Assembly (NCBI GenBank): GCA_963713445.1 | Contig: CAVQMB010000024.1 | Location: 26,985 to 90,984, forward strand | Length of the DNA: 64,000 nucleotides | Direction: 5' to 3' | DNA from: an uncultured Gammaproteobacteria bacterium | Lineage (GTDB): Bacteria; Pseudomonadota; Gammaproteobacteria; Competibacterales; Competibacteraceae | Shown here: positions 13,690-39,573 of the stretch, in pieces | Layout: each line of letters opens with the position of its first letter | Numbering within the stretch: position 1 is the stretch's first letter | The notes under the pieces: generated by a model | What the model saw: only the letters and a program-made list of their open reading frames with translations | Database searches by the model: none | What the model was told of the DNA's origin: nothing | Program-made: the position numbers and the translations under genes

Positions 13690-15191
13690 GCATTCTGGAG
13701 ATCAGCGGCCTGTCCAAACGATTCGGCGGCCTGCGTGCGGTCAATGAGGTCGATTTTGGTGTTGCGAAAGGCGAAATACTCGGGCTCATCGGGCCCAACG
13801 GATCGGGCAAATCGACCACATTGTCGCTGATCATGGGTATCGTCCGACCCGACGCCGGCTCGATCCGCCTGGACGGCCGCGAAGTGGCGGGTTGGCCAAC
13901 CCACCGGGTCGCCGAACACGGCATCGGCATGGTCTTCCAGCACTCCCGGCCACTGCACCGGCAGACCGTACTGGAGAACATCAAGCTGGCGCTGCTGCCC
14001 AACACCATTTTCCAGCTTTTCCCCAGGCCGGAGGTGGCGCGCCAGGCGCAAGAGATCGCCGAACGCGTGGGGCTTGGCGATGTTATAAATCATTATCCCG
14101 ATGCCCTCGCTTACGCTGATCTACGGCGCCTGGAGGTGGCGAAAGCCATTGCCCTCGACCCGACTGTAGTGCTGCTCGACGAACCCTTTGCCGGCCTCGC
14201 GCCCAACGAGGTTCGTGAGTTTTCGAGTCTGGTAACGGCCCTGCGGGATCAGGATCATGCCATTGTTCTGGTGGATCACAACGTCAAGGCAGTCGCCTCG
14301 CTGGTGGATCGGGTGGTAGCGATGTACGTGGGCGAGAAGATTGCCGAAGGCACACCCGCCGAGGTCACCGGCAATGCACGGGTACGCGAAGTCTATTTCG
14401 GCGGCTCACTCGACGAGGCTCACCCTACCACCGAACAGATCAAGCAGGCACTGCACGTCGAGGACCAGACTACAGCCGAAACCAGGCGTCAGGCGCCGGT
14501 GCTGCTCGAGGTTGGGATCGACTCGGTTCGTTACGGCAAAGCCCAGGCGCTGCGGGATACCCGCATTCAGGTGCATGAGGGTGAATTCGTGTCCGTCGTG
14601 GGCTTGAACGGTGCTGGCAAGAGCACACTGTTCAAGTCCATCATGGGTTTCGTCGGCTATGACGGCGACATCGCCTGGCGGGGTGAGTCCATCAAGGGCC
14701 GCACGACAGCGGCAATCGCCACCTCCGGACTAGCGTTATGCCCCGAGACGCGTGAGCTGTTCCGCTACATGAGCGTGCGCGAGAACCTGGAAATGGGCGG
14801 ACAACGCCTCGACAAAAGAGGCTTGCGGGACAGCCTTATGCGGGTGTTTGAGCTGTTCCCGGTGCTGGCGGAACGGCAGCGGCAGCCGGCGTTGACGCTG
14901 AGTGGTGGAGAGCAGCAACAGCTCACTATCGGGCGGGCCTTGATGCAGAACCCACGGCTGCTGATACTCGACGAACCCACGCTGGGGTTGGCACCGTTGA
15001 TCATCGAGAACATCTCGCGCGCACTGGAGCGGCTACGCGCCGAGACCGGTCTGGCCATTCTGCTTGGCGAACAAAACGTAACCTTCGCCCTGCAGCACTC
15101 GGACCATATGTATCTGCTGGAAACGGGCGATCTGAACTGGCAAGGCAGCGCCGAGGTCTTTGTCGAGGAAGCCGGCGCGGACTTTCTGTGA
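13686..15191 (+). CDS. fused tandem ATPase: LivG-like and LivF-like nucleotide-binding domains in one 501-aa polypeptide
   Basis: ATG 13686 overlaps the LivM-like stop (ATGA). NBD1 has GPNGSGKST and VVLLDEPFAGL. A linker of about 30 aa follows (SLDEAHPTTEQIKQALHVEDQTTAETRRQAP). NBD2 has GLNGAGKST, LSGGEQQQ and LLILDEPTLGL. There is no stop codon between the domains. Confidence 0.85.
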   Translation: MSILEISGLSKRFGGLRAVNEVDFGVAKGEILGLIGPNGSGKSTTLSLIMGIVRPDAGSIRLDGREVAGWPTHRVAEHGIGMVFQHSRPLHRQTVLENIKLALLPNTIFQLFPRPEVARQAQEIAERVGLGDVINHYPDALAYADLRRLEVAKAIALDPTVVLLDEPFAGLAPNEVREFSSLVTALRDQDHAIVLVDHNVKAVASLVDRVVAMYVGEKIAEGTPAEVTGNARVREVYFGGSLDEAHPTTEQIKQALHVEDQTTAETRRQAPVLLEVGIDSVRYGKAQALRDTRIQVHEGEFVSVVGLNGAGKSTLFKSIMGFVGYDGDIAWRGESIKGRTTAAIATSGLALCPETRELFRYMSVRENLEMGGQRLDKRGLRDSLMRVFELFPVLAERQRQPALTLSGGEQQQLTIGRALMQNPRLLILDEPTLGLAPLIIENISRALERLRAETGLAILLGEQNVTFALQHSDHMYLLETGDLNWQGSAEVFVEEAGADFL

Positions 15192-22456: not shown

Positions 22457-23053
22457 TCAATCGGTCGCAACGGCATAGCCGAATTCGGCGGCCGAGTGGG
22501 TCAGCCAGCCCCAGAAACTGACAGCGTAGCTGCGTAGGACATAAAGGTCGAATATATCGCCACCGCTGTGATGCAGAACTGTGTGGATCCCATGCACCGC
22601 TGAGACGGCCACAGCGCCGACCGGCAGCACGCGCGGATGCAGATCAACCGGCAGACCTTTTGCCAGGACCTGCCGAACCGCTGGGCCGCGAAGCCGCAGA
22701 CCACAGCGAGCATGGCTGAGGTCGGCCACAGTCGCCGTATCGCTGTCGAACCCGGCGCGCAAGCGATCCAGTAACTCGCCGTCGGCTCCCTCGGCTACGA
22801 CCCAATAGGTTTCCGCCCCGATCGAAAGCATCGCGACTGCATTATCCGCGCTGGCACGGTTGGGTGCCGGCACTGGCAGAGTCAGGCCGGTATCGATTGC
22901 GCGGGCGAAGGCGTCAGCCCGGTCCGGCCAGTGACAAAGCTGGGCGATGAGCAGTCCCCGGCGCTGCGTCAAGGTAACACCGGGCGCGTCGGTATCGCGG
23001 CCGAAGCGCCCGGCCTCGAGGGTATGCTCCAAAGCAGAAATGGCATTAGCCAC
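22457..23053 (-). CDS. mgdD: N-methylglutamate dehydrogenase / sarcosine-oxidase-family gamma subunit
   Basis: GTG 23053 has a GGGAGA SD 8 nt upstream and overlaps the alpha-subunit stop by 8 nt. About 198 aa, the usual SoxG size. It is last in the beta-delta-alpha-gamma order. Confidence 0.65.
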   Translation of the reverse strand: MANAISALEHTLEAGRFGRDTDAPGVTLTQRRGLLIAQLCHWPDRADAFARAIDTGLTLPVPAPNRASADNAVAMLSIGAETYWVVAEGADGELLDRLRAGFDSDTATVADLSHARCGLRLRGPAVRQVLAKGLPVDLHPRVLPVGAVAVSAVHGIHTVLHHSGGDIFDLYVLRSYAVSFWGWLTHSAAEFGYAVATD

Positions 23054-26027: not shown

Positions 26028-26302
26028 GCCGGATCCTCTTCGTCGTATAGGGTGCGGGCCAGCCGGGCACCGAACACCTCATGGGTACCGGTGTCACGCT
26101 CTACCACCAGCCAGGCACGGCAGCCATGACCATGGTGCCAGAGTTCCTGATGACGGCCGCGCGGGTTATCACGCATGTAGACATAATCGGTCCATTGCGC
26201 GGTAGGGGCATCGGCAGCCGGGCGGCGCACCGTGGCGTCGCCCAGATAAGTAAACTCGCTGTGGTCACGCAGGCCGCAATGCGGGCAGGGAATGCGGATC
26301 AT
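26024..26302 (-). CDS. mgdB: N-methylglutamate dehydrogenase / sarcosine-oxidase-family delta subunit
   Basis: 92 aa. MIRIPCPHCGLRDHSEFTYLGDA is a SoxD-type N-terminus. 4-nt overlap with the alpha-subunit gene. Confidence 0.8.
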   Translation of the reverse strand: MIRIPCPHCGLRDHSEFTYLGDATVRRPAADAPTAQWTDYVYMRDNPRGRHQELWHHGHGCRAWLVVERDTGTHEVFGARLARTLYDEEDPA

Positions 26303-26314
26303 GATCGCTCGCGC

Positions 26315-27571
26315 TCAATGACGATTGGGATACGGTCCGGTGCTTTCCTCGTCCAGCAGATGGCCGGTCGCGAAACGTTCCAGACTATAAGGACGGTTGA
26401 ACTCGTGCGGTTCATCGTGGGCGATCGTGTGCGCGAACACCCAGCCGGAACCGGGTGTAGCCTTGAAACCACCGTAGCACCAGCCACCGTTCAGATAGAG
26501 ACCGTCGACAGGGGTCTTGCCGATGATCGGTGAACCATCCATGGTCATGTCCATGACGCCGCCCCAGTGGCGCAGCAGACGCAGCCGCCCCAGCATCGGA
26601 AACATAGTGACAGCGGCTTCGGCGACATGCTGTACCAAGGGCAGATTGCCGCGCTGGGCATAGGAGTTGTAACCATCCAGGTCGCCACCGAACACCAGAC
26701 CGCCCTTGTCGGACTGGCTGATATAGCAATGCGCTGCGCTGAACGTGGCCACGGTGTGGATCAGCGGCTTGATCGACTCGGTCACGAACGCCTGCAGCAG
26801 ATGGCTTTCGATGGGCAACCGCAGGCCGGCCATTGCTGCCAACCTACCCGTATTGCCGGCCACCGCTGTACCGATTCGGTCGGCCCGGATGTCGCCGCGG
26901 CTGGTCTGTACGCCGCGGACTCGCTCGCCGTCATACAGGAAACCCGTCACCTCGCAGTTCTGGATAATGTCGACACCCAGCCGATCGGCGGCCCGGGCGA
27001 AGCCCCAGGCCACCGCATCGTGGCGCGCATTGCCGGCCCGCTGCTGTAGCAGACCACCATACACAGCGAAGCGGGAATCGCCGTCCTGGTATAGGCCTGG
27101 CAACATGGCGCGGACCTGGTCAGGATTGAGAAACTCGGCATCAACTCCGTTCAGACGCATGGCATTGCCGCGGCGGCGGAAGCGCTCGGCAACGCTCTCG
27201 GACTGGGCAACGTTGAGCACGCCACGCTGGCTGAACATCACGTTGTAATTCAGATCCAGGCTAAGCCCCTCCCACAGCTTCAGCGAATGTTCGTAGAAGC
27301 GGGAGTTGCCCGTCAGTTCATAGTTCGAGCGGACGATGGTGGTGTTGCGCCCGGTGTTGCCGCCACCGATATAGCCTTTCTCCAACACCGCCACATTGCG
27401 GATACCGTGATTTCGGGCCAGGTAATAAGCGGTAGCGAGCCCATGCCCGCCGCCACCGATGATGATGACGTCGTAACCTGCCTTCGGCACCGAGTCGCGC
27501 CAAGCACGCGGCCAACGTCGATGCCCTCTGAGCGCGTGCCCTAGCAACGCCCAGGCTGAATATCTGCCCAT
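26315..27571 (-). CDS. mgdA: N-methylglutamate dehydrogenase / sarcosine-oxidase-family beta subunit (FAD)
   Basis: 418 aa. YDVIIIGGGGHGLATAYYLA is an FAD-binding dinucleotide fold. Confidence 0.8.
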   Translation of the reverse strand: MGRYSAWALLGHALRGHRRWPRAWRDSVPKAGYDVIIIGGGGHGLATAYYLARNHGIRNVAVLEKGYIGGGNTGRNTTIVRSNYELTGNSRFYEHSLKLWEGLSLDLNYNVMFSQRGVLNVAQSESVAERFRRRGNAMRLNGVDAEFLNPDQVRAMLPGLYQDGDSRFAVYGGLLQQRAGNARHDAVAWGFARAADRLGVDIIQNCEVTGFLYDGERVRGVQTSRGDIRADRIGTAVAGNTGRLAAMAGLRLPIESHLLQAFVTESIKPLIHTVATFSAAHCYISQSDKGGLVFGGDLDGYNSYAQRGNLPLVQHVAEAAVTMFPMLGRLRLLRHWGGVMDMTMDGSPIIGKTPVDGLYLNGGWCYGGFKATPGSGWVFAHTIAHDEPHEFNRPYSLERFATGHLLDEESTGPYPNRH

Positions 27572-27667
27572 GGCTGGGATTCCGGTCTGTAGAAGCTGTT
27601 ATGGGTGTCTAATCCGCAAGCTTAACGGTTCCCGATCGCTGGCCGCAATCGTCCCGATACCGCGGAC

Positions 27668-28975
27668 CTACAGGTCCAGCGTGTTACGGCGCTCCCAGTC
27701 GCTCAGGCAACGGCTGTAGTCATTCCATTCCTGCGTCTTCATCTTGATATAGGCCCGGCTGAATTCATCGCCGAGGGCCGCTTGCAGTACCTCATCGCGC
27801 TCAAAAGCCCGGATCGCATCGATCAGATAAAGCGGCAGCCGCTTCACATCCGGGGCCTTGTGGCCTTCTGAGTACATATCGATGTCGAGCCGGGCGCCGG
27901 GCTGACGCTGCTCATGGATGCCCTGCAAGCCAGCCGCCAGATTGACTGCCTGTAGCAGATACGGATTGGCCGCGCCATCGGCCTGACGGAACTCGAAGCG
28001 TCCGGCATCGGGCACACGGACCATGTGGGTGCGGTTGTTGCCGGACCAAGTGATAGTATTAGGCGACCAGGTCGCACCTGACATGGTGACCGGTGCGTTG
28101 ATCCGCTTGTAACTGTTGACTGTCGGGTTGGTAATGGCACTCATAGCTTCAGCATGGTGCAAAATACCCGCCAGGAACTGGTAGGCCTTCTCCGACAAGC
28201 CCAGTTCATCGCCGTCATCGTGCATGATATTGCGGGTAGCGTGGGGATGCTCCCATAGCGACAGGTGCACGTGACAACCGTTGCCGGTAAGGTGCATGAA
28301 CGGCTTCGGCATAAAGGTTCCGCGCAGGCCGTGCTTTTCGGCAATCGAGCGGACCATGAATTTGAAGAACGCGTGGCGATCCGCTGTCTGCAGGACCGAA
28401 CTGTAATCCCAGTTCATTTCGAACTGCCCGTTCGAATCCTCATGATCGTTCTGGTAGGGTCCCCAGCCCAGTTCCAGCATGCCATCACAGATCTCGGCTA
28501 TTACATCGTAACGCCGCATCACAGCCTGCTGGTCATAGCAGGGTTTCTCAGCTGTATCGAGGTCATCAGAGATGGCCGTTCCATCCGTGTTGATGAGGTG
28601 GAATTCCGCCTCGACACCCGACTTGGGATGAAAACCCTGCGCTTCTGCGACACCGACCAGTCGCTTGAGCACATTCCGCGGCGCCTGCTCAAGCGATTTG
28701 CCGGCCATCCACAGGTCGCAGGCTACCCAGGCGACATCGCGCTTCCAGGGTAACCGTATAACACTGTCGGGGTCGGGTAACGCGAACATATCCGGATCTG
28801 CCGGGCTGAGATCCAGGTAGGTCGCGAATCCGGCAAATCCGGCTCCGGCCTCCTCCATCTGCGCGGCAGCGGCTGCCGGCACAAGCTTGGAACGCTGTAC
28901 GCCGCGCAGATCGGTAAAGTTGAACAGAAAATACCGGATATCGTTCTCTTGCGCGAAAGTTTGAAGCCTACTCAT
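27668..28975 (-). CDS. gmaS: gamma-glutamylmethylamide synthetase (type III glutamine-synthetase family)
   Basis: 435 aa with a GS catalytic domain (GVEAEFHLI, HVHLSLW, NPTVNSYKR). It lies between the mgs and mgd genes. Confidence 0.75.
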   Translation of the reverse strand: MSRLQTFAQENDIRYFLFNFTDLRGVQRSKLVPAAAAAQMEEAGAGFAGFATYLDLSPADPDMFALPDPDSVIRLPWKRDVAWVACDLWMAGKSLEQAPRNVLKRLVGVAEAQGFHPKSGVEAEFHLINTDGTAISDDLDTAEKPCYDQQAVMRRYDVIAEICDGMLELGWGPYQNDHEDSNGQFEMNWDYSSVLQTADRHAFFKFMVRSIAEKHGLRGTFMPKPFMHLTGNGCHVHLSLWEHPHATRNIMHDDGDELGLSEKAYQFLAGILHHAEAMSAITNPTVNSYKRINAPVTMSGATWSPNTITWSGNNRTHMVRVPDAGRFEFRQADGAANPYLLQAVNLAAGLQGIHEQRQPGARLDIDMYSEGHKAPDVKRLPLYLIDAIRAFERDEVLQAALGDEFSRAYIKMKTQEWNDYSRCLSDWERRNTLDL

Positions 28976-29028
28976 TGTTCAGATCTCCCCGGGTGGCATT
29001 TAGGATTATCAAAGGCATAAACCGAGCG

Positions 29029-30339
29029 TCAGGTCCAACCGGGAATCCAGTTGGTACCCGCGAGAGGTATTCGCGCCATGGCCGCTGCCTCCATGGTCAA
29101 CGCGACCATGTCCTCAGGCTCGAGGTTGTGAACATGTGACTTGCCGCAGGCGCGAGCTAAAGTCTGGGTCTCAAGCGTCAGAGTGGTCAGGTAGTTGCGC
29201 ACACGCTGGGCTGCCAACTCCGGATCAAGGCGCTGCTCAAGTTCCGGGTCCTGGGTGGTGATGCCGACCGGACATTTGCCGGTGTGGCAGTGATGGCAAT
29301 GCCCTGGCGAAGTACCTAGCACCGCATAGTCCTGTTCGAAAATCGGTGCGTTGCAGTTGAGCGCCATCAAGGCTGCCATACCTATAGACACGGCGTCGGC
29401 ACCCAACGCAAGCGCCTTGGCCACGTCGCTGCCCGTGCGAATGCCACCGGATACAATGAGCTGCACTTTGCGGTGCATGCCCAACTCCTTCAGAGCGTCC
29501 ACCGCTTGCCGCACGGCCGGCAGCGTCGGTATGCCCACGTCCTCGATAAAGCAGCTCTGGGTCGCGGCAGTGCCGCCCTGCATGCCGTCAAGCACGATGG
29601 CATCGGCACCTGCCTTGACCGCCAGCATGGTATCGTAGTGGGTCCTTGTAGCGCCGATCTTGACGTAGATCGGTTTTTCCCAATCAGTGAGTTCACGCAG
29701 TTCGTGGATCTTGATTTCAAGATCGTCGGGACCAGTCCAGTCCGGGTGACGGCTTGCGCTGCGCTGGTCGATGCCGACCGGCAGGGTGCGCATACCCGCG
29801 ACTCGCTCGGTGATCTTCTGGCCCAACAGCATACCCCCGCCACCTGGCTTTGCGCCCTGCCCCACGACTACCTCGATGGCATCCGCACGGCGGATCTGGT
29901 CAGGCTGCATCCCGTAGCGCGATGGCAAATACTGATAGATTAGCGTCTTGGACGCTTGGCGCTCCTCATCAGTCATGCCCCCATCACCCGTCGTGGTGCT
30001 GGTACCCATATCAGTGGCAGCCATGCCAAGCGCCTGTTTGGCATTCGCGCCCAGCGCGCCGAAACTCATGCCGGCAATGGTGATCGGTATCTTAAGTTCA
30101 ATCGGTTTCTTGGCGAAGCGCGTGCCGATTACGACATTGGTATCACACTTTTCCCGATACCCTTCCAGCGGGTAACGCGACACCGACGCACCCAGAAATA
30201 CCAAGTCGTCGAAATTCGGTACCTTGCGCTTGGCGCCAGAACCCCGGATGTAGTAGAGCCCTTCGGCCGCCGCGCGCTGGATTTCAGCAATCACATGCGG
30301 GGGGAATGTCGCGGATTCACGCTGCTTTCTAGGATCCAT
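29029..30339 (-). CDS. mgsC: N-methylglutamate synthase subunit C (FMN-binding GltB-domain-2-like)
   Basis: Start at MDPRKQRE (ATG 30339); GTG 30351 is an alternative. Contains ITIAGMSFGALG, VVGQGAKPGGGG and GGTAAT motifs of the glutamate synthase FMN domain. Confidence 0.8.
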   Translation of the reverse strand: MDPRKQRESATFPPHVIAEIQRAAAEGLYYIRGSGAKRKVPNFDDLVFLGASVSRYPLEGYREKCDTNVVIGTRFAKKPIELKIPITIAGMSFGALGANAKQALGMAATDMGTSTTTGDGGMTDEERQASKTLIYQYLPSRYGMQPDQIRRADAIEVVVGQGAKPGGGGMLLGQKITERVAGMRTLPVGIDQRSASRHPDWTGPDDLEIKIHELRELTDWEKPIYVKIGATRTHYDTMLAVKAGADAIVLDGMQGGTAATQSCFIEDVGIPTLPAVRQAVDALKELGMHRKVQLIVSGGIRTGSDVAKALALGADAVSIGMAALMALNCNAPIFEQDYAVLGTSPGHCHHCHTGKCPVGITTQDPELEQRLDPELAAQRVRNYLTTLTLETQTLARACGKSHVHNLEPEDMVALTMEAAAMARIPLAGTNWIPGWT

Positions 30340-30353
30340 TGCCGTCCCCACCC

Positions 30354-31040
30354 TCAGTAATACGAAAGGTTATTGATCTTGAAGTTGTAAAGCTGGCGTG
30401 CCGAACCATAACGCCGGAACTCCCGCGGGTCGGCATCAATCGCGGCACGCTCGAGCAGATCCCGTAGGGTCGCCAGGTGTTCGTCGCCCATGGGCTTTTC
30501 GATGCAGTCGGCCCCCAGGCTTTCCACGTTACCGCGCACGAACAGCTTGGCCTCGTACAGGGAGTCGCCAAAATGGGCGCCCGCATCGCCGCACACGACG
30601 AGGTGGCCGGCCTGCGCCATAAAGGCCGACATGTGTCCCACCGAGCCACCCACAACGATATCTATGCCCTTCATCGAAATGCCACAGCGTGCACTGGCAT
30701 CTCCCTTGATCACCAGCAACCCCCCATTGCCGGTGGCACCGGCCGACTGGCTGGCATAACCCGCAACCCTAACGGTCCCGGACATCATGTTTTCAGCAAC
30801 GCCGACGCCCGCATTGCCATCGATGGTGACCGTAGCCTGTTTGTTCATACCGGCACAGTAATAGCCGACATGGCCTCTCACCCGGACGCTCAACGGCGCA
30901 TCCAGGCCACACGCAATCGCGTGGCGACCCTTGGGGTTAAGGATTTCAAACTGCGTCTCGTCGGGGTTGCCCTCACGACCCTGCAGACGCCTATTCAGCG
31001 TGCGCAGATCCACCTCATCCAGATTCACCGTCGCCATCAT
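30354..31040 (-). CDS. mgsB: N-methylglutamate synthase subunit B (GXGXG-repeat, GltB C-terminal-domain-like)
   Basis: Start at ATG 31040 in a TGATG junction with the mgsA stop; ATG 31055 is an alternative. Repeated G.(A/V)G..(G/A) beta-helix motifs (GNAGVGVAENM, GDASARCGISM, GSVGHMSAFM, GDAGAHFGDSL). Confidence 0.75.
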   Translation of the reverse strand: MMATVNLDEVDLRTLNRRLQGREGNPDETQFEILNPKGRHAIACGLDAPLSVRVRGHVGYYCAGMNKQATVTIDGNAGVGVAENMMSGTVRVAGYASQSAGATGNGGLLVIKGDASARCGISMKGIDIVVGGSVGHMSAFMAQAGHLVVCGDAGAHFGDSLYEAKLFVRGNVESLGADCIEKPMGDEHLATLRDLLERAAIDADPREFRRYGSARQLYNFKINNLSYY

Positions 31041-31939
31041 CAGGCCCTGCCCCAACTGTAAACCGTCGCTGGCTTCGGCTCCCAGACCTGGGCATGCTCC
31101 GCACCTGGCAGACGGGCGATGGCACGATATTCAGTGCTCATCGCGACCCAGTCATCGGTTTCCGCCATGATGGCATGCTTGCATGCGATCGGATCGCGTA
31201 CTACCGCAAAGCCATCGCTAGTGCCAACCGCAAACGTAAAAAAGCCGTCCAGATCCACGAGGCAGGCCTCCAGCGCCTCTTTCAGCGATGCCCCTTCACG
31301 CAGACGCCAAGTCAGGTAAGCCGCCGCGACCTCAGAATCGTTCTCGGTTTGAAACCGCAGGCCAGCGTTGTGACTCAACCAGTCGCGCCAGAGATGATGG
31401 TTCGACAACGAACCGTTATGCACCAGACACAAGTCATCACCACTATTGAACGGATGAGCCCCTTCAGTCGTAACCGCACTCTCAGTGGCCATGCGGGTGT
31501 GTCCAACCGCATGTGACCCGGTCATACTGGCAATGCCGAACTCTTCCAGCACATGCCGGGGTAATCCCACTTCCTTGAAGATTTCGAGCGTGTGCCCGGA
31601 ACTCATGACGCGGATCTCTGGATGACGTCGTTCAAGCCAGCCGCGCAAATCAGTATCCGGCTCATCGACAGTCAGGATCGCGTGGGTCGCGATGTGCTTG
31701 AGCTGAAGCCGCACACCCAGGTCGGTTTCGGCCTCCTCGACGATGCGGTCCCAATCGAAGTGCCGGTTACCATGGTATGCCACCACTTTTGCGCCGACAG
31801 CCTGATCCTCGCGGTAAACGGCGATGCCCGCGCTGTCCGGACCACGTTCTGTCATCTCGATCAGCATGGGACAGAACAGCTTGCCGAGCTGCCCCTGCAG
31901 ATCCGGATTCTTCAGGTACAGACCTACGATTCCGCACAT
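31040..31939 (-). CDS. mgsA: N-methylglutamate synthase subunit A (class-II/Ntn glutamine amidotransferase-like)
   Basis: Start moved to MCGIVGLYLK (ATG 31939), placing the catalytic Cys at position 2. GGAGGAG SD upstream. Confidence 0.8.
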   Translation of the reverse strand: MCGIVGLYLKNPDLQGQLGKLFCPMLIEMTERGPDSAGIAVYREDQAVGAKVVAYHGNRHFDWDRIVEEAETDLGVRLQLKHIATHAILTVDEPDTDLRGWLERRHPEIRVMSSGHTLEIFKEVGLPRHVLEEFGIASMTGSHAVGHTRMATESAVTTEGAHPFNSGDDLCLVHNGSLSNHHLWRDWLSHNAGLRFQTENDSEVAAAYLTWRLREGASLKEALEACLVDLDGFFTFAVGTSDGFAVVRDPIACKHAIMAETDDWVAMSTEYRAIARLPGAEHAQVWEPKPATVYSWGRA

Positions 31940-31998
31940 AACCCCAATACTCCTCCACTGCACACAGGCGTTCAGTAAAACCGCCACGGTTGAGACTC

Positions 31999-32011
31999 GG
32001 TAAACTTTACC
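31999..32011. promoter_or_regulatory. 13-bp perfect palindrome upstream of mgsA (candidate operator)
   Basis: GGTAAA-C-TTTACC lies 60-72 nt upstream of the mgsA ATG, in the gap after the XRE-cupin regulator gene. Confidence 0.35.
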
Positions 32012-32053
32012 TCAATGCATATTAATTTCATAGAGGGATTATTTAACGAGGTT

Positions 32054-32704
32054 TCATTCCTCAGCTTCTGAGCGGGGATAGACGATAATCGACAGATAGC
32101 GCGACGGTAGTCGCACGAGTTCCAGAGGTCCGTGCGTGGCGATTGCGTCAAAAAACAGGGAGTCGCCAGGACCGATATGAAAAGTCCTGTCGCCGTGGCG
32201 ATAGATCAGCTCCCCTTCCAACATGTAGATGAACTCCACCCCTTCATGTTGGAAATCGCCGAACGGCTCAGAGCCCTCGGTAAGCGTGATCATATAGGGC
32301 TCGACCGCAACCGGGCCGCGCACCCCGTGCCCCAGAAGCTCATAGATGTGACCTGCGCGCGTACCCCGGCGATCGATTTCCAGACCTTCGCCAGCCGGCA
32401 CATAACAAACATCGCGGCTCGCGTCGAGACGTGCGAACAGCGCCGACAGCGAGATCCCCAGTGCATCAGCCAACGCGGCCAGAGTTGAAAGTGACGGTGA
32501 GGCATGACCGTTCTCGATTTTGGACATCATGCCCTGGGACAGATTGGCCCGTTGCGCCAGCGCCAGCACGGTCATGTTGGCATTGCGCCGATGCTTGCGT
32601 ATTTCCGCGCCGATGTATTTTTCCAGGTCGCGCCGTACCGGGCCTGCTGTGGTATCCGGTATCAGGCCAAGCGATTCGGCATCCTGCGATCTGCGATACG
32701 CCAT
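32054..32704 (-). CDS. XRE-family HTH transcriptional regulator with C-terminal cupin domain
   Basis: Start at MAYRRSQ (ATG 32704, GGGAGG SD). HTH segment MTVLALAQRANLSQGMMSKIENGHASPSLSTLAALADALGISL. Cupin segment GVEFIYMLEGELIYRHGD. Confidence 0.85.
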   Translation of the reverse strand: MAYRRSQDAESLGLIPDTTAGPVRRDLEKYIGAEIRKHRRNANMTVLALAQRANLSQGMMSKIENGHASPSLSTLAALADALGISLSALFARLDASRDVCYVPAGEGLEIDRRGTRAGHIYELLGHGVRGPVAVEPYMITLTEGSEPFGDFQHEGVEFIYMLEGELIYRHGDRTFHIGPGDSLFFDAIATHGPLELVRLPSRYLSIIVYPRSEAEE

Positions 32705-32848
32705 AGTAGAGCCTCCCAAGGGCAAGGGGCGACGCCGCCGCACCATTGCTCCCCGGATCCTCCACCTACATCAATGCCAGGCGATTGTTATAGCGGTGGT
32801 GTCCCGGTCCCGGCCGATCGAAAGCCCAAGCACTCAAAAGTGCCCCAA

Positions 32849-33205
32849 TCACGCATCATGTCGGGCACTGGCAGCGGCGTCGCGACGATAGTATTCCCAA
32901 CGATACCGGGCAACCCGGTAAGCATCCATGAATGAAACGAAATATACAAACCAGCCGCCCGCATAACGCGCGAGAAGGCTCTGATCAGCGTCCGCAAAAT
33001 GGGACGTCACGATACCCAGAAGAATAATGTAAAACAGCATAATCAAACCACGGGTCGGTTGACCGTTCACGACCTGGCCAGCGCCCGGCAGCAATATACC
33101 GGCGGCCAGCACCAGGACCGGATGCCAGGGGCGGCGGACACTAGGCTGAAGGCGGTTAGGCTGGGGCAGCACCATCACGCGCCTCCTGCTCCAGATCGTG
33201 CGCAA
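32849..33205 (-). CDS. small membrane protein, unknown function
   Basis: 118 aa in the track. LLPGAGQVVNGQPTRG is followed by TM helices. The start is uncertain: it overlaps the upstream ORF by 20-50 nt. Confidence 0.45.
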   Translation of the reverse strand: MRTIWSRRRVMVLPQPNRLQPSVRRPWHPVLVLAAGILLPGAGQVVNGQPTRGLIMLFYIILLGIVTSHFADADQSLLARYAGGWFVYFVSFMDAYRVARYRWEYYRRDAAASARHDA

Positions 33206-33845
33206 GCTCGATCAACCGGTCGAGCAATCGTCGGGCGAGCTCAGCTGGTACGGTAATCTCATCAAACAGCACGCCGCGCACGATGCGGTAACGCAGTTTG
33301 TCGGCCTGACACAGTTGGTAGACAAAGCGGATCCCCCGTGGCGTCACTAGCAACTCCTTGGTCCTGAGATCGACAAAATCCGCGATATAGGGCGCCAGTC
33401 GCTCGACCGGCGGCATCGCTGCCGGTTCATCGGTGCGCAGCCACGCATGCTGAGGCCAGCCTGACGGTATCTCGATCGAATAGGGCAGTTGCCCGGAGGG
33501 TGAGTAGTACTCCAGGTTTTCCGGCCGCATCAGAAAATCGAACACACCGCGCCAGGGCAGCGCATGCTTGACCGTGACCAGGAGCCAGAGAGACGGGATC
33601 TTTCGATACCCGAGGTGATCGTCGAGCGGTCGCAGACGTACCTGGTAGCCGTGATAAGTGCCCTCGAGCGACGGAAAATCAAGGTTCTGCTGGTTGAGCC
33701 GAGACTCCGTCAGCAACGGCATGACCTCGTCGAACATGGCCCGCCGGCGGCGGCGTACGGCACGGTTGTGCTGACGCTGAAAATGCCACATTAGCACGGC
33801 TGCAAGAACCGTAATTGTCAGAACAGCAATTAATCGGGTCGACAT
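33156..33845 (-). CDS. hypothetical protein with a single N-terminal TM anchor
   Basis: 229-aa ORF with coding-like composition. I recognise no family. Confidence 0.55.
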   Translation of the reverse strand: MSTRLIAVLTITVLAAVLMWHFQRQHNRAVRRRRRAMFDEVMPLLTESRLNQQNLDFPSLEGTYHGYQVRLRPLDDHLGYRKIPSLWLLVTVKHALPWRGVFDFLMRPENLEYYSPSGQLPYSIEIPSGWPQHAWLRTDEPAAMPPVERLAPYIADFVDLRTKELLVTPRGIRFVYQLCQADKLRYRIVRGVLFDEITVPAELARRLLDRLIELAHDLEQEARDGAAPA

Positions 33846-33909
33846 CGATCCCTCTGGGAAAATCGGGTGCTTCCGGCCTGGCTGTCCCAGGACGGAAGCA
33901 CCCAGCCGG

Positions 33910-34335
33910 TCAATGCACTATCGTCACGGCACAATGCGCTTTCTCGGCAACGCCATAGGCCACGGAGCCAATCCGCGATGTAGCGCTGCGGCCAGTGTGG
34001 CCGACCACGATATGATCGAAACCATGCTCACTGGCATAGTCCACGATCGCACCACCAATGTCCCGCGCGTTGACAGTGACACAGGTGACATCACCCAATC
34101 CGGCCTCCTCGGCTCGCTTACGCGCCGCTGCCAGTTCCATCCGATCCTGGGCCATGACGGCACCGAGAATCTTGGAATCCCAGAAGCGCTGCTTGGTCGC
34201 CTGCTCGGTATTAACACGTTCTACGGTCAGGAAACAGATCGGGACACCAAGCTGTTTGGCGAAATCCACCGCAAATTCCACCGCCCCTTCCGAGGCGTGC
34301 GAACCGTCAGCTGCACACAGAATTTTCGACACCAT
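33910..34335 (-). CDS. universal stress protein (UspA family)
   Basis: 141 aa. ILCAADGSHASEGAVEFA and C-terminal IVVGHTGRSATSRIGSVAYGV motifs. Confidence 0.85.
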   Translation of the reverse strand: MVSKILCAADGSHASEGAVEFAVDFAKQLGVPICFLTVERVNTEQATKQRFWDSKILGAVMAQDRMELAAARKRAEEAGLGDVTCVTVNARDIGGAIVDYASEHGFDHIVVGHTGRSATSRIGSVAYGVAEKAHCAVTIVH

Positions 34336-34350
34336 CGTGCAATCCCTCCC

Positions 34351-35760
34351 CTAGTAGCCCTCAGGCCTTGGCCATGGCATCGTGAACTGCGATCCACGTT
34401 CCACGAACTTGTAACGGCGAAAATGAAACCAGACCGAGATGATGATGTAGAAAGCCATAGTAGCCAGTAGCGTACTGCCATAGCCCAGAAACGTGGCAAA
34501 GTATGTCATGACGCACAATATGAATAACGTGATCGCCGGTAACGGGTGAAACGGATGCACGTAGCCACGGTCAATGCTTCCGAGCGGCCATTGCCGGCGG
34601 AACTTGACCATGTTGATAGTCATGAATGTATATCCGAGCAGCCCCGACAGGATGGAAAATGTAATAACCTGATCCAGCAGACCCGTGAAGCCGAATGACA
34701 CCGCAACCGGAATCAAAAACACAATAGACCGGAAAGGCGTGCGATAGCGCGGATGCACGGCGCCAAACACGCGTGGCAGATAACCGTCGCGCCCCAGCGA
34801 GAACCATGCCCGCGCGGCATCGTTGATGGTACCGTTGGCTGACGCGAGAGCGGAAAACGCAGTCCCCACAAACAGGAACGCTGTCACCGCCGGGATGCCA
34901 AGGACCCGTGCACTGTCATACAGTGGCACGCTGGCCTGTCCCAGATACTGCCACGGTAGCACACCACTTGCCACATACCAGGTTAGAGTCGCGGCTATCA
35001 ACAGCGTGATCATTCCGGTCATCGTGCCCAGCGGCAGCGAACGCCGCGTCGATCGGGTTTCCTCCGCCGCCTGCGTGGTCCCCTCGATACCCAGGTAATA
35101 CCACATACCAAACTGCAGCGCGGCGATTACACCGATCCAACCATAGGGCAAACCGACCAGCAGTTCCTTATGATGCATCACCTTGCCCAAGCTCCAGGGC
35201 TCAGCAACAAAGAACAATACGATGATCGATACGAACGCGATAAATGTAATGACGAAATTCACGTTCAGCGTTATGGCGACACCACGGTAGTTCAGAAACG
35301 CCAAGACGCTGATGGCCAACACCACGAACGGCTTGGGATCAAGCCCTGGGTGGCCCGTCTGGGCTGCCACCTGATGCATAAGGTCGCCGACCACCAGTGC
35401 ATCGGCGGCCTCCAGCATGGTATAGGCAAGCACGAGATAAAGCGCCACGTTGAACGCCATCAACGGGCCGATGATGTGCTTGGCCTGGGCATACTGGCCA
35501 CCGGCCGCAGCAACCGTCGATGTCACCTCGGAATCGACCATCGCCACGCAGGTGTATAACAAACCAATAAACCAGCACGCTATCAGCGACGCCTCCGGCC
35601 CCCCCTTGCCCACGGTGAAATTCCAGCCCATGAATTCACCAACAAGGACGATACCGACACCGAGCGCCCAGACGTGTACCGGCCCCAGCACCTTAAGAAG
35701 CTGAAGGCTACCCTCTTGTCGCTCCCCAGCACCTCCATCTTCGGTCGCTCCGTTAGCCAT
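34351..35760 (-). CDS. APC-superfamily permease, ethanolamine-permease (Eat)-like
   Basis: Start taken at MANGATEDGG (ATG 35760), which overlaps the stop of the upstream 55-aa ORF (ATGGCTAA). About 12 TM segments. GPVHVWALGVGIVLVGEFMGWNF is an APC-type N-terminus. Confidence 0.8.
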   Translation of the reverse strand: MANGATEDGGAGERQEGSLQLLKVLGPVHVWALGVGIVLVGEFMGWNFTVGKGGPEASLIACWFIGLLYTCVAMVDSEVTSTVAAAGGQYAQAKHIIGPLMAFNVALYLVLAYTMLEAADALVVGDLMHQVAAQTGHPGLDPKPFVVLAISVLAFLNYRGVAITLNVNFVITFIAFVSIIVLFFVAEPWSLGKVMHHKELLVGLPYGWIGVIAALQFGMWYYLGIEGTTQAAEETRSTRRSLPLGTMTGMITLLIAATLTWYVASGVLPWQYLGQASVPLYDSARVLGIPAVTAFLFVGTAFSALASANGTINDAARAWFSLGRDGYLPRVFGAVHPRYRTPFRSIVFLIPVAVSFGFTGLLDQVITFSILSGLLGYTFMTINMVKFRRQWPLGSIDRGYVHPFHPLPAITLFILCVMTYFATFLGYGSTLLATMAFYIIISVWFHFRRYKFVERGSQFTMPWPRPEGY

Positions 35761-35920
35761 TGTTGACATCCTCCACCAGGAGGTCTTCACCTTCCCGGGA
35801 ACTCAGGAGGTATGCTTCAGAATACTCAGAACTGACCTTGAACATGTCGACCACCATCCACAGCAGCAGAACCGCCGACACGATCCAGGCCCCATAACTC
35901 AGAACGTTCCAGAAATCCAT
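35753..35920 (-). CDS. 55-aa single-TM protein (not in the ORF track), translationally coupled to the permease
   Basis: My own translation gives MDFWNVLSYGAWIVSAVLLLWMVVDMFKVSSEYSEAYLLSSREGEDLLVEDVNNG-stop. AAGGGGG SD lies 7 nt upstream. Its stop overlaps the permease ATG. Confidence 0.55.
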   Translation of the reverse strand: MDFWNVLSYGAWIVSAVLLLWMVVDMFKVSSEYSEAYLLSSREGEDLLVEDVNNG

Positions 35921-36389: not shown

Positions 36390-36701
36390 TCAGTGATCGA
36401 AAGCACCGTCGCGATGCCGACCCTTCCTCGCTCGTTTTTCATCCAGATGCCTTATATCCGGCTCGTAGACCCTGCGCTTGTGCTGGCGATACTGGCTCAG
36501 CATGGCGGTGATCGATCCGGTGTTATAGATGAGAACCAGGCCGCCGCCGATAAATAGCGCGAGCACCGCATCAAAATCGATCATCGTCCTGATCGTAAGG
36601 AAGGTGAAGAGATAAACGATCCAGAGTACGACGACGAACCCGATACCCCAGATCTTGTCGCGCGCATACATTGCATCCATACGGTCCTCGAGAGAAGTCA
36701 T
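36390..36701 (-). CDS. 103-aa two-TM membrane protein, basic C-terminal tail, unknown function
   Basis: The ORF has a strong SD (TTAAGGAGGTGCGTCC-ATG). It is the first gene in the co-directional run ending at mgdD. Confidence 0.6.
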   Translation of the reverse strand: MTSLEDRMDAMYARDKIWGIGFVVVLWIVYLFTFLTIRTMIDFDAVLALFIGGGLVLIYNTGSITAMLSQYRQHKRRVYEPDIRHLDEKRARKGRHRDGAFDH

Positions 36702-36834
36702 GGACGCACCTCCTTAAGGTTGGATTATCGTGAGCCGGCCGTGCCATCCTGGCGAACGACCGTCCGCATCTACCATCGGTGCCGCACGTGCAGCCCGACG
36801 CATTCTGCACTGCCGGGGCATCCTTCGAAGAAAC

Positions 36835-36871
36835 ACATTGGCAATGTCGAAGAACATGCACCCCAGTGCAT
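36835..36871. promoter_or_regulatory. two palindromes in the leader/promoter region of the membrane-protein/permease module
   Basis: ACATTG-G-CAATGT (36835-36847) is flanked by direct TCGAAGAA(A)C repeats. ATGCAC-CCCA-GTGCAT follows at 36856-36871. A TTGACG -35-like hexamer on the minus strand lies at 36902-36907. Confidence 0.3.
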
Positions 36872-36975
36872 ATTACTTTCCTACAATGACTAACAGGCCC
36901 ACGTCAAGAAAAAACGGCAGAACACTCCAAAACAGCCGTCGATAGTTTTAGAGAAACAATCAAAAATCACTCCGG

Positions 36976-37070
36976 ATAATCTAATATTTCTTTTAATTTC
37001 AAAGATATATATTTATATATATTTATATTTTAATAATATATATTTCTAAGTAATCAAAAACATTAGAACA
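36976..37070. other. extreme AT-rich low-complexity tract
   Basis: By my count about 10 G/C in 95 nt, within a genome that is otherwise >60% GC. It contains (TATATATTTA)x2 and TAATAATATATATTT. Confidence 0.9.
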
Positions 37071-37208
37071 TCGCTATCGCACCTAGCACCATTGGCCATG
37101 CCGAGCGCCTCGACCAATACTTCAAGCGCGGTGAGGATCAGCCGAGTTTCGCATGGTAATTGCTGAGGTGGGCGTATCACGCAGGGCGAGCGTAATCTCA
37201 TTAGAAGT

Positions 37209-37287
37209 AAAAATGCCGGGGCTGAAGAGCCCCGGCAAATAACCACCAAAGGAGGAGTTTGGAGGAGAAACATCCAGCAGGATGTTG
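37209..37287 (-). ncRNA. candidate small RNA, copy 1 of 3 (anti-SD-core sRNA)
   Basis: RNA sense: AACAUCC-UGCU-GGAUGUU hairpin, then UCUCCUCCAAACUCCUCCUUUGGUGGUUAUUU, then terminator GCCGGGG-CUCUUCAG-CCCCGGC-AUUUUU. The 5' end is inferred about 7 nt after the -10 hexamer. Confidence 0.75.
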
Positions 37288-37293
37288 CGTTGC

Positions 37294-37322
37294 AGTATAT
37301 GTCCTATGTTGCGCTGCGTCAA
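37294..37322 (-). promoter_or_regulatory. sigma70-type promoter of sRNA copy 1
   Basis: Minus strand: TTGACG (37322-37317), a 17-nt spacer, then TATACT (37299-37294). Confidence 0.75.
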
Positions 37323-37373
37323 TAGCGGCTGGAAGGCTTTCCGTCGGGAGAACACTTTTTGACACGCGCACAT

Positions 37374-37454
37374 AAAAATGCCGGGGCTGAGGAGCCCCGG
37401 CAAATAACCACCAAAGGAGGAGTTTGGAGGGAACACTCGAAACCTCGAATGTTG
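37374..37454 (-). ncRNA. candidate small RNA, copy 2 of 3
   Basis: RNA sense: AACAUUCG-AGGUUU-CGAGUGUU hairpin, then CCCUCCAAACUCCUCCUUUGGUGGUUAUUU, then terminator GCCGGGG-CUCCUCAG-CCCCGGC-AUUUUU. Confidence 0.75.
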
Positions 37455-37460
37455 AGAAGC

Positions 37461-37489
37461 ATTCTAGTCAGGATGCTGCAACGCGTCAA
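37461..37489 (-). promoter_or_regulatory. sigma70-type promoter of sRNA copy 2
   Basis: Minus strand: TTGACG (37489-37484), a 17-nt spacer, then TAGAAT (37466-37461). Confidence 0.75.
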
Positions 37490-37543
37490 CCGATCTAGAG
37501 CGATTCTAAACAATCGGTAATCTGGTAGAAGATTTCAAACAAT

Positions 37544-37622
37544 AAAAAGCCGGGACAGAGAGTCCCGGCAATAAACCACCAAAGGAGGAGTTTGGAGGAG
37601 AAACATCCTACATCGGATGTTG
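37544..37622 (-). ncRNA. candidate small RNA, copy 3 of 3
   Basis: RNA sense: AACAUCC-GAUGUA-GGAUGUU hairpin, then UCUCCUCCAAACUCCUCCUUUGGUGGUUUAUU, then terminator GCCGGGA-CUCUCUG-UCCCGGC-UUUUU. Confidence 0.75.
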
Positions 37623-37628
37623 CAACGC

Positions 37629-37657
37629 AGTATAAAACACATGCTGCACTGCGTCAA
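37629..37657 (-). promoter_or_regulatory. sigma70-type promoter of sRNA copy 3
   Basis: Minus strand: TTGACG (37657-37652), a 17-nt spacer, then TATACT (37634-37629). Confidence 0.75.
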
Positions 37658-38075
37658 CAGGAGCAGTGACATCTCATGCAGCATGACCGCCCCTAATTAA
37701 CCAAGACTGTCACCGCACGGCAAAGTTCCCGTCACTAGCACCAAAGCGGACAGCACTTGCAGCTGACAGCCGGGTGAGCGTGATTACGCCGCCGACGTGG
37801 CAGCCGCGAACCCGTTTGTCGCATGCAATACGTACCCATACCCCACAAGCGGCACGGATTCACTGGATCGCGGGAATCGGGAGCGGAGCAAGACGTCAAT
37901 CGCCCCCAGTCAACCAAAAAAAGCGGCGCTGGAGCGCTGAAAAGCTGCGGTTTGCGGTCACGGAAACACTGACATAGCACCGCAACAGAAATCAGAGGCG
38001 CCAGTACAGGCTTGCCGCAGTCGCCTTTAGGAGACAGTCGGGTCGGGGACGGTTCCTATCAGCCCTGGCTTGTTC

Positions 38076-38104
38076 GCCGGCTTCAGCTCCACACCGAAGC
38101 CGGC
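38076..38104 (-). terminator. hairpin about 25 nt downstream of nuoN (possible end of the nuo operon, no U-tract)
   Basis: Minus strand: GCCGGCTTC-ggtgtggagct-GAAGCCGGC, a 9-bp stem. Confidence 0.4.
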
Positions 38105-38130
38105 CACAGAAGTTGCCGGCCCGTTACCGA

Positions 38131-39573
38131 CTAAATATGAAATGCGGCGTAACACAACGACATCAGCGCCGTAGGGTAAATCCCAAGGGCGATGATCAGC
38201 AACCCGTTGGCGCTTATGCCGATCCGAGTATCAAGGTGCGGAACCGTCAGCGTACCTTGTTCGGGCTTGTCGAAGTAGACGTACTTGACCACCCGCAGGT
38301 AGTAGAACGCTCCGATCACGGCAAAGATCACCGCCAGTACCGCAAGCCATACCAAGCCGGCGCTAATCGCCGCCTGCAAAACTGCCAGTTTGGCATAAAA
38401 ACCAACCAGAAACGGGATGCCCGCCAGCGACATCATAAATACCAGCATCATGAACGCGAGCCATGGGTTACGCTCATTAAGCCCCTTCAGATCCGCGATC
38501 TGATCAGCCTCGAAACCGGCGCGGCTGAGCAGTATAACGATCCCGAAGGCGCCGGTAGTCATCACCGCATAGGTAATGGCATAGAACATGGCAGCGGCAT
38601 AGCCCTGTGGTGTACCGGCGATCACGCCAAGCAACAGGAAACCGACATGCGAGATGGTCGAGTAAGCCAGCATGCGCTTAATATTGGTCTGCGATATCGC
38701 CACCAGGTTACCCAGCACCAGAGACAAGGCGGCCAGTATCACCAGCATCTGCTGCCAGTCGCTATGGAGGGCACCCAGGCCTTCGGCCAGGACCCGGATC
38801 AACAACGCAAATGCCGCAATCTTGGGGGCAGTACCGAGATACAGCGTCACCGACGTCGGAGCACCTTCATAGACATCCGGCAGCCACATATGGAACGGCA
38901 CCGCACCCAGCTTGAACGCCAGGCCAACCACCAGGAACGCGACGCCGAAAGCCAGCGCAAGATGGTTGTCGACATGTGATTTGCTGAGTTCCGTGGCAAT
39001 GGTATGCAGTTCCAGGCTACCGGTGGCTCCGTATATCATGGAGATACCGTACAACAGCATGCCGGAGGCCAGTGCGCCGAGCACGAAGTACTTCATTGCG
39101 GCCTCTGAGGCGTTGCCGGAGTCGCGCTGGAAGCCGACCAGCGCGTACTGACACAGCGCCAGCAGTTCGAGTCCCAGGTACACGGTAAGGAAGCTACCCG
39201 CCGACACCATCACCATCATGCCGAGCACACCAAACAAACCCAGCACGTAGTATTCACCACGGAACAACTGGCGTTCCCGCAGGTAATCGCGGGAGTACAG
39301 GAACACGGCCCCGGAAATGACATAAATACTCAGCTTCAGCACGGTCGCCAGCGGGTCGCTGACATAATGGCCGTTGAAGCCCACCACCGTGTTGGCGTGG
39401 TAGCCGTAGAGCGTGACCAGAAATGCACCCACCAGGGTAAGCTGGGCGAGGCCGTAAGTGATCCAACGCTGTTCCTGTTTAAGGAACACGTCGACCACCA
39501 GCACCAGGCAGGCCATGGCCATCACGAACAGTTCCGGCGCAACGAGAGAGAGGTCGGGTATGGCGAAATGCAT
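38131..39573 (-). CDS. nuoN: NADH-quinone oxidoreductase subunit N
   Basis: 480 aa, polytopic, ND2/NuoN-like. Last gene in the nuoA-N order. Confidence 0.93.

Follow-up and report, generated by a model that had tools for sequence, protein, structure and literature searches.

Three tandem predicted small-RNA genes downstream of nuoN in a Competibacterales-like bacterium: a likely divergent branch of the RF02278/S17S family

Organization of the locus

The 64-kb stretch of DNA analyzed here (the window) harbors three tandem units on the minus strand downstream of nuoN, the last gene of the nuo operon. Each unit consists of a predicted promoter, a 5' hairpin (SL1), a C/U-rich core, and a predicted terminator (Table 1). 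According to a repeat finder, the three copies are spaced 165 and 168 bp from start to start, which agrees with the initial annotation of this DNA, in which minus-strand units recurring every 165-170 bp had been described. The 25-nt core, reading AACCACCAAAGGAGGAGTTTGGAGG on the plus strand, consists of the same letters in all three units, as had also been claimed, and a 23-nt pattern, CCTCCNNNCTCCTCCNNNGGTGG, has three occurrences in the window compared to 0.00 expected from 100 shuffles.

A promoter scan of positions 36500-38500 yielded exactly three sigma-70-like sites, all of them on the minus strand and each with 10 of 12 matches, corresponding to the TTGACG-17-TATACT/TAGAAT/TATACT promoters that had been proposed. 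Each of these sites is followed, about 110 nt further downstream, by a strong terminator-like structure consisting of a G+C hairpin and a T-run; these three structures are the terminators already assigned to the units. Promoters and terminators are consensus matches and, thus, predicted elements. The initial annotation also held for SL1, which is formed by AACAUCC/GGAUGUU in the outer two units (type A) and by AACAUUCGA/UCGAGUGUU, including one U-G pair, in the middle unit (type B), for the G-C to A-U change in the terminator of the upstream unit (copy 3), and for the lack of conservation between the units. The promoter spacer of the upstream unit contains a conserved GCA-NN-GCA box (TTGACGCAGTGCAGCAT). 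This box, which shows enrichment, is located upstream of the window-type units as well as of RF02278-type loci (see below), and the upstream-unit promoter itself is conserved in homologs.

A covariance model (R1), built from the window copies and five metagenome loci and representing the window type only, was searched against the 64-kb window with filters off. It detected just the three units with 86.5-104.7 bits, the next best match having 10.9 bits. As a conserved upstream neighbor, nuoN marks the position of the sRNA locus in related genomes. A Peptidase_M74 gene, which follows nuoN in these relatives, was searched for in the window and is absent from it. The best named relatives of the RpsA protein encoded in the window are from Candidatus Competibacteraceae (86% identity), Competibacterales (84%), and Plasticicumulans (82%), and those of NuoN are from a Gammaproteobacteria MAG (74%) and Competibacteraceae (about 70%). 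Judged by these two proteins, the host is a Competibacterales-like bacterium outside the Betaproteobacteria.

Table 1. Features of the array and other genes of the window referred to in the text. SL, stem-loop; R1, covariance model of the window type; MFE in kcal/mol.
Feature	Position	Strand	Details
nuoN, last gene of the nuo operon	38131-39573	-	Proton_antipo_M, 274 bits
Upstream unit (copy 3, type A)	37544-37657	-	
Predicted promoter, upstream unit	37629-37657	-	TTGACG-17-TATACT, 10/12
Predicted sRNA, upstream unit (about 79 nt)	37544-37622	-	Fold (MFE -32.4, z -6.3) and R1 (98.9 bits)
Parts of upstream sRNA	SL1 37621-37602; SL2 37598-37576; terminator 37569-37549	-	Seed 1 linker UUUCUCCUCC; U-tail
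25-nt core, upstream unit	37574-37598		Identical in all units
Middle unit (copy 2, type B)	37374-37489	-	
Predicted promoter, middle unit	37461-37489	-	TTGACG-17-TAGAAT, 10/12
Predicted sRNA, middle unit (about 80 nt)	37374-37454	-	Fold (MFE -36.6, z -6.0) and R1 (86.5 bits)
Parts of middle sRNA	SL1 37453-37432 (longer); SL2 37430-37408; terminator 37402-37379	-	Seed 1 UUCCCUCC (altered)
25-nt core, middle unit	37406-37430		Identical in all units
Downstream unit (copy 1, type A)	37209-37322	-	
Predicted promoter, downstream unit	37294-37322	-	TTGACG-17-TATACT, 10/12
Predicted sRNA, downstream unit (about 78 nt)	37209-37287	-	Fold (MFE -35.5, z -6.75) and R1 (104.7 bits)
Parts of downstream sRNA	SL1 37286-37269; SL2 37265-37243; terminator 37237-37214	-	Seed 1 UUUCUCCUCC; U-tail
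25-nt core, downstream unit	37241-37265		Identical in all units
Liv-type periplasmic binding protein	10499-11770		SD region UUGGAGGAGG
Usp gene	33910-34335		

Predicted RNA structure and covariation

The three predicted RNAs of about 78-80 nt fold into the same three hairpins in the MFE and in the centroid structure with -32 to -37 kcal/mol. Their z-scores range from -6.0 to -6.8, and a fold of equal quality was obtained from none of 200 shuffles. In the upstream unit, SL2 has a 7-nt loop with the sequence CUCCUCC, and the SL2 stem of the window type is formed by CCAAA/UUUGG plus CC/GG across a U-U mismatch.

In a model-based alignment of 17 copies comprising 14 distinct sequences, standard pairs are found in 98% of the cells, and seven pairs are changed on both sides, with SL1 accounting for four of them and the terminator for three. 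Homologs with further compensatory pairs had been named beforehand as a finding that would support an RNA. The observed covariation score is reached by none of 500 column shuffles, and pairing falls to 27-46% when the 3' partners are slid by 1-3 columns as a control. A MAFFT-based RNAalifold analysis, which is not fitted to the model, revealed six compensated pairs. SL2 is invariant in this subfamily, with no compensatory change in the alignment, and covariation is neutral on this hairpin; a metagenome scan allowing R/Y freedom in SL2 returned, besides chance matches, the exact AAA core only and no compensated SL2 variants. The assignment to the minus strand is based on the U-G pairs in type-B SL1, which turn into A-C mismatches when read from the opposite strand, and on the polarity of promoters and terminators. 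Altogether, these results support three paralogous, self-contained genes on the minus strand for predicted small RNAs of about 80 nt.

CRISPR, REP, and mobile-element readings of the array were considered as well and dropped, because the units are promoter-to-terminator cassettes with neither spacer-like unique inserts of regular length nor associated genes.

Relationship to RF02278 and the double-hairpin RNAs

At Rfam gathering thresholds, only a tRNA was found in the whole window and nothing at the array. In a relaxed search of positions 37100-37800, RF02278 ('Betaproteobacteria toxic small RNA') aligned over its full length (1-64/64) with all three units, with scores of 35.5 (upstream), 33.5 (middle), and 35.5 bits (downstream) and E-values of 2e-5 to 7e-5 (upstream, 2.3e-5; downstream, 3.4e-6 in a smaller search). 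No unit reaches the RF02278 gathering score of 50 bits, and by the Rfam criterion the units are, thus, non-members. Much weaker matches were obtained with other C/U-rich sRNAs, namely ncS16, NmsRb, anti-hemB, SorX, and alpha-r14. The initial annotation had recognized no family in these units, and the novelty implied by this is lost with the sub-threshold but full-length alignment to RF02278; its RNA call is untouched, an outcome that the annotation had itself anticipated for an Rfam hit.

A scan for the core pattern in one genome per species returned at least 120 loci. Among the matches listed, about 105 are Burkholderiales intergenic units consisting of gUCUCCUCCACCCUCCUCCUUUGGUGGAUU, a G+C hairpin, and a U-run, including minor subtypes with AUC or AUU replacing ACC; about 10 of the 120 matches listed are chance matches in coding DNA, and none has the AAA core of the window. 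For five Burkholderiales units that were compared with Rfam, the RF02278 scores amount to 65-74 bits and exceed the gathering score throughout. R1 in turn scores canonical Burkholderiales members with 24-50 bits, which is not a fully independent result because these members had been preselected by the window-core pattern. The Burkholderiales units are the double-hairpin RNAs ncS03, ncS05, ncS27, and ncS62, which have been described with C/U-rich anti-RBS stretches in B. cenocepacia (PMC5688073), and S17S of B. pertussis; RF02278 comprises the same RNAs. In the S17 preprint, ncS27 is named bdhR1. Positions 2-28 of S17S (first 27 nt) have been reported to be 100% conserved across Betaproteobacteria (PMC11722255). 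In a manual count, the window core UUUCUCCUCCAAACUCCUCCUUUGGUGG equals the conserved S17S core UGUCUCCUCCACCCUCCUCCUUUGGUGG at about 24 of 27 positions, so that identity is incomplete, and the ACC-to-AAA change makes up two of the differences. The AAA variant is itself invariant within its own lineage.

An origin of the array RNAs as a new sRNA family, which would share no common descent with RF02278, S17S, or NmsR and would have converged on anti-Shine-Dalgarno (anti-SD) seeds like CcsR, alpha-r14, and RsaE, is considered improbable. Such an origin would agree with scores under the gathering threshold of every Rfam family, with a host that is not a betaproteobacterium, with an SL2 register unlike that of canonical members, and with the weak matches to CcsR1 (20.4 bits), SorX (19.1 bits), and RsaE (18.0 bits), which show how easily C/U motifs cross-match. 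These unrelated C/U-rich families, however, score about 15 bits lower than RF02278, which aligns with all three units in full length (E about 1e-5). Furthermore, the order and spacing UCUCCUCCA-3 nt-CUCCUCCUUUGGUGG and the distance to the terminator are equal to those in RF02278, and the agreement with the invariant S17S core as well as the GCA-NN-GCA box upstream in both groups also speak against separate origins. A part of the similarity to RF02278 could still be convergent, as anti-SD C/U motifs arose in the unrelated RNAs CcsR, alpha-r14, and RsaE/RoxS. Judged by sequence, the three units are likely a divergent, lineage-specific branch of the RF02278/S17S/double-hairpin family and not a new family.

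Homologs, synteny, and copy number

A metagenome scan for the AAA core resulted in five true loci (L123, L124, L126, L127, L128) and three chance matches in coding DNA. For the analysis of synteny, contigs encoding the closest NuoN relatives (77-81% identity) were chosen independently of the sRNA sequence. All of these loci, which represent four related assemblies, have nuoN followed by the Peptidase_M74 gene and then by R1 matches, with one copy in L134/135/136, two copies in L138 and in L139, and three copies in L142. The metagenome copies L123, L124, L126/L131, L127, L128, and L132 are situated at other loci. Near nuoN, no copy was found in L121 and L122 (NuoN identity 73-74%) or in the true Competibacteraceae L140 and L141. 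At a fadA-fadJ-SLT locus, two tandem copies are present in one metagenome contig and one copy in another sample. Tandem copy number is therefore labile, both at this locus and after nuoN, where it varies from one to three. The triple array of the window represents, as far as these loci indicate, one state of a variable locus and is not unique, since L142 has three copies, too.

Three types of siblings can be distinguished. Type A has the short SL1 and the linker UUUCUCCUCC. In type B, which is also found in L138, L139, and L142, the longer SL1 has the general form AACAUUCGA/UCGARUGUU, and the linker is shortened or altered (UUCCCUCC, UUUCUCC, UUCCUCC, or none). Type C, found in L142, is without 10 nt (AAACUCCUCC) and has a single seed left. 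The order of siblings is A-B-A in the window, B-A in L139, A-B in L138, and C-B-A in L142. The siblings appear to differ mainly in the number and identity of their predicted exposed C/U-rich seeds, in addition to SL1.

The variation in copy number from one to three between close relatives and the 10-nt deletion that removes one seed from an L142 copy could be taken as signs of decay, in which case the units would be non-functional tandem duplicates with promoter- and terminator-like sequences and no regulatory role. This is very unlikely given the pattern of conservation. The 23-nt core is kept across at least nine distinct assemblies or samples, despite NuoN identities of 77-81%, in all but two copies, both of which are siblings from L142 (the core has a deletion in one of them, and seed 1 is missing from the other), whereas the sequence between the units is not conserved. 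In addition, both variable hairpins are preserved by compensatory changes, and all promoters retain TTGACG-17-TAnAnT.

That the units are small protein-coding genes, either on the minus strand, with M(F/L/S)LLQTPPLVV... starting from the SL1 3' arm, or on the plus strand, with ML(R/Q)..VN.. antisense to the promoter, is hardly credible. In its favor, an AUG is present in the SL1 3' arm (GGAUGUU) of most copies, and reading frames of 23-75 aa exist on either strand. The middle unit, however, has no such AUG, and its frame is offset by 2 nt. The ORFs on the minus strand pass through the terminator to stop codons beyond the U-run and have no SD sequence because their AUG lies inside a hairpin. 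The plus-strand ORFs are alike solely in the residues opposite the promoter and then diverge, and the substitutions in the helices are compensatory and not codon-periodic. Over the full range of 21-104 aa, no ORF drawable on either strand is common to the three units. With homologs from independent assemblies keeping promoter, core, and terminator, and with compensated hairpins, the earlier reading as three paralogous RNAs of about 80 nt, and neither protein genes nor simple repeats, stands.

Proposed mode of action and putative targets

With good confidence, the array can be regarded as three sibling genes for trans-acting sRNAs from a divergent branch of an anti-SD family, which likely block ribosome-binding sites (RBS). 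Each RNA would be transcribed from its own predicted promoter and would start with the protective 5' hairpin SL1, followed by the exposed C/U-rich linker, which is UUUCUCCUCC in type A. A second C/U-rich seed, CUCCUCC, would be displayed in the 7-nt loop of SL2. The predicted 3' end, consisting of an A/U-rich spacer, the terminator hairpin, and a U-tail, resembles the usual Hfq-binding module; a gene for Hfq does not occur among the annotated genes of the window. One or both seeds may pair with purine-rich ribosome-binding regions of selected mRNAs in an Hfq-assisted manner, and this pairing would block translation initiation and render the mRNA less stable. SL1 could protect the 5' end, or processing at GUUUCU could cleave it off, similar to ncS27 and S17L. 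The copies presumably arose by local tandem duplication. Repression by RBS occlusion is expected because the modules and their order are as in S17S, NcS27, and the Neisseria siblings, in combination with the Hfq-type 3' end. The differences in seed 1 and SL1 between types A and B suggest partly distinct target sets or a control of dosage.

For S17S, Hfq-dependent repression of BP2158 at the RBS through the single-stranded Sites 1 and 2 has been reported; pairing involves the 5' single strand and the first loop, a sigma-54 activator is directly repressed, and the predicted targets are transporters for the most part (PMC11722255). Targets of homologs are mainly genes for transporters and for carbon and amino acid metabolism, and overexpression of ncS27 attenuates growth on several carbon sources (PMC5688073, PMC10987360). 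A similar target class may be assumed for the array RNAs. A target search within the window with RNAduplex revealed no outstanding match at a credible start codon, and a scan of the window for contiguous complementarity produced weak leads only, 64 kb being too small for meaningful target prediction. These leads are the gene for a Liv-type periplasmic binding protein, the SD region of which (UUGGAGGAGG) is complementary to the type-A linker over 10 contiguous nt, and the Usp gene as a lead for type B.

Implications

RF02278 ranks among the best-conserved sRNA families known from Betaproteobacteria. What these RNAs do physiologically is only beginning to emerge, as for S17S of B. pertussis, NcS27 of B. 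cenocepacia, and the Neisseria siblings. The novelty of the array is modest and comprises a non-betaproteobacterial host, a core that is specific to the lineage, does not vary within it, and comes with a shifted SL2, and an arrangement in one to three tandem copies with sibling types varying in their seeds. As a divergent, Competibacter-like branch, these RNAs would indicate that the model and the name in Rfam understate the range of the family, and window-type sequences could join the Rfam seed alignment. Nature provides variants in types A, B, and C, which have one or two seeds and in which SL2 is shifted, and these could be useful to dissect how the two C/U-rich sites are employed. In a relative of glycogen-accumulating bacteria from wastewater plants, the array could plausibly serve to slow uptake and metabolism as a global post-transcriptional brake. 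Most likely, its biology extends known principles and does not introduce a new one.

A further step, which is possible though rather doubtful, would be to regard the AAA-core RNAs as the first recognized members of a tsRNA/S17S/NmsR group outside the Betaproteobacteria, joining RF02278 and the Neisseria siblings in an ancient superfamily. The basis for this would be that they combine the S17S core with the linker, the three-hairpin layout, and the tandem arrangement of NmsR. If this is true, the array of one to three copies after the nuo operon expands and contracts rapidly in a Competibacterales-like clade, and the copy number together with the seed content (two, one, or altered) would tune the translation of mRNAs for transporters and carbon metabolism. 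The GCA-NN-GCA box, along with putatively sigma-54-driven copies beside TctC genes, could then indicate a common transcription factor that controls the superfamily as a whole.

Comparison with known systems

The closest resemblance is to the RF02278 family, with which the array RNAs share a C/U-rich 5' single strand, a hairpin with a CUCCUCC loop, and, separated from it by a short A/U spacer, an intrinsic terminator. This architecture, i.e., an unpaired C/U stretch at the 5' side, a C/U-loop hairpin, and a Rho-independent terminator, is present in all three units, both in the MFE and in the centroid fold. Several paralogs per genome and the GCA-NN-GCA box upstream are further common traits, and some RF02278 members (ncS27, S17L) likewise have 5' extensions with hairpins, which are cut off by processing. 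In contrast to CCACCC in RF02278 members, the window core has CCAAAC, and because of this ACC-to-AAA change the register of SL2 is shifted, with CCAAA/UUUGG and a 7-nt loop in the window type compared to the canonical UCCACC/GGUGGA with a 10-nt loop. The conserved SL1 at the predicted 5' end is another difference from RF02278 members. The window copies are in tandem, whereas the 8-kb Burkholderiales loci searched contain one copy each and the paralogs of B. cenocepacia have been described as dispersed (Sass 2017, PMC5688073). Finally, the host is Competibacterales-like, while RF02278 is a family of Betaproteobacteria.

The Neisseria RNAs NmsRa/NmsRb (NgncR_162/163, RcoF1/2) act via the SL2 loop and the SL1-SL2 linker, occlude the RBS, bind Hfq, and slow the growth of E. 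coli (PMC9973317). Like the window units, they are adjacent siblings with own promoters, which are predicted ones in the window, and with three stem-loops. The seed GUUUCUCCUC in the SL1-SL2 linker is common to both, and the seeds in the SL2 loop are UCUCCUUU in the window units and CUCCUCCUUU in NmsR. The NmsR layout of adjacent siblings, three stem-loops, and seeds in the linker and the SL2 loop is found in the window as well, which is a matter of architecture and not proof of descent. The RF02877 (NmsRb) scores of 22.8 and 16.6 bits compare to a gathering score of 52 and, with E-values of 0.055-0.36, are not significant. The SL1 and SL2 stems differ between the two groups, and Neisseria has two copies compared to one to three in the window lineage.

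CcsR1-4 of Rhodobacter sphaeroides are four homologous sRNAs, which are reportedly arranged in tandem and co-transcribed (Billenkamp et al. 2015). With these RNAs (RF02791, loops with CCUCCUCCC), the window units share the tandem arrangement of short, mutually homologous hairpin RNAs with an exposed C/U-rich anti-SD motif. The score for RF02791 is 20.4 bits, compared to a gathering score of 65.3. CcsR RNAs are processed from a transcript that also includes a small ORF upstream of them, whereas each window unit has its own predicted promoter and terminator, and CcsR is alphaproteobacterial, unlike the host of the window. The resemblance between CcsR and the array RNAs is probably convergent.

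Genomic surroundings of the sRNA array

The locus following nuoN is rearranged in the window's lineage. In all examined relatives of the window's NuoN with at least 73% identity (contigs L121, L122, L134-L139, and L142), the next gene after nuoN encodes a Peptidase_M74, of which no trace was detected in the window by tblastn. The spacer that replaces this gene contains an 81-aa ORF without a Pfam match. Another triple tandem sRNA array is located after nuoN and the Peptidase_M74 gene at positions 2484-2916 of the JGI metagenome contig L142, whose NuoN is 81% identical. Copy 1 of this array has lost 10 nt (AAACUCCUCC) and retains a single C/U seed, copy 2 has no linker seed, and copy 3 belongs to type A, which is defined by the stem-loop AACAUCC/GGAUGUU and a C/U-rich linker seed.

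Directly downstream of the window's array, a stretch of roughly 100 bp (36960-37065) is very poor in G+C. Over this block, G+C drops to 0.39-0.40 compared with 0.55-0.60 in the surroundings (300-nt windows), and it contains a tandem pair of a 31-nt repeat (36984-37045). The gene cluster further downstream (23046-35790, minus strand) is consistent with methylamine use via the N-methylglutamate route. Elsewhere in the window, a single 800-aa ORF harbors two ABC ATPase domains, one LivG-like (residues 303-540) and one LivF-like (residues 573-789). Over its initial ~300 codons it overlaps the permease gene upstream, which lies in a different frame. Either this is a fused ATPase gene, or the ORF call extends too far.

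Coordinates of features in the window and in metagenome contigs L123 and L127
Feature	Location	Strand	Remarks
ORF, 800 aa	window 12789-15191	+	LivG-like and LivF-like ABC ATPase domains
Sarcosine-oxidase-like alpha and beta subunits	window 23046-27571	-	
Type III glutamine-synthetase-like enzyme	window 27668-28975	-	645 bits
GltB-like FMN protein, GXGXG protein, amidotransferase	window 29029-31987	-	
XRE-type regulator	window 32054-32746	-	
Usp	window 33910-34335	-	
Ethanolamine-permease-like transporter	window 34351-35790	-	
GCA-NN-GCA box, TTGACGCAGTGCAGCAT	window 37636-37652, 37468-37484, 37301-37317		inside -35/-10 spacer
Spacer replacing Peptidase_M74 gene	window 37660-38130		470 bp
sRNA copy of the window's type	L123 2231-2322	-	metagenome
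sRNA copy of the window's type	L127 4344-4435	-	metagenome

Elements upstream of the sRNA genes

The sRNA copies on L123 and L127 lack a sigma-70 promoter, in place of which a correctly spaced sigma-54-like element, TGGTGCTGTT(T/A)TTGCA, is present. Both are immediately followed on the same strand by a gene for TctC, the receptor of a tripartite tricarboxylate transporter.

A GCA-NN-GCA/TTGC-N3-GCA box was found upstream of 61-63 of the 111 sRNA family members among the matches listed, compared with 3-9 of 111 control segments; this count drew on the upstream regions of loci L001-L128. The box may be a shared operator for some regulator. A common upstream motif has also been mentioned for double-hairpin RNAs (Sass 2017, PMC5688073).
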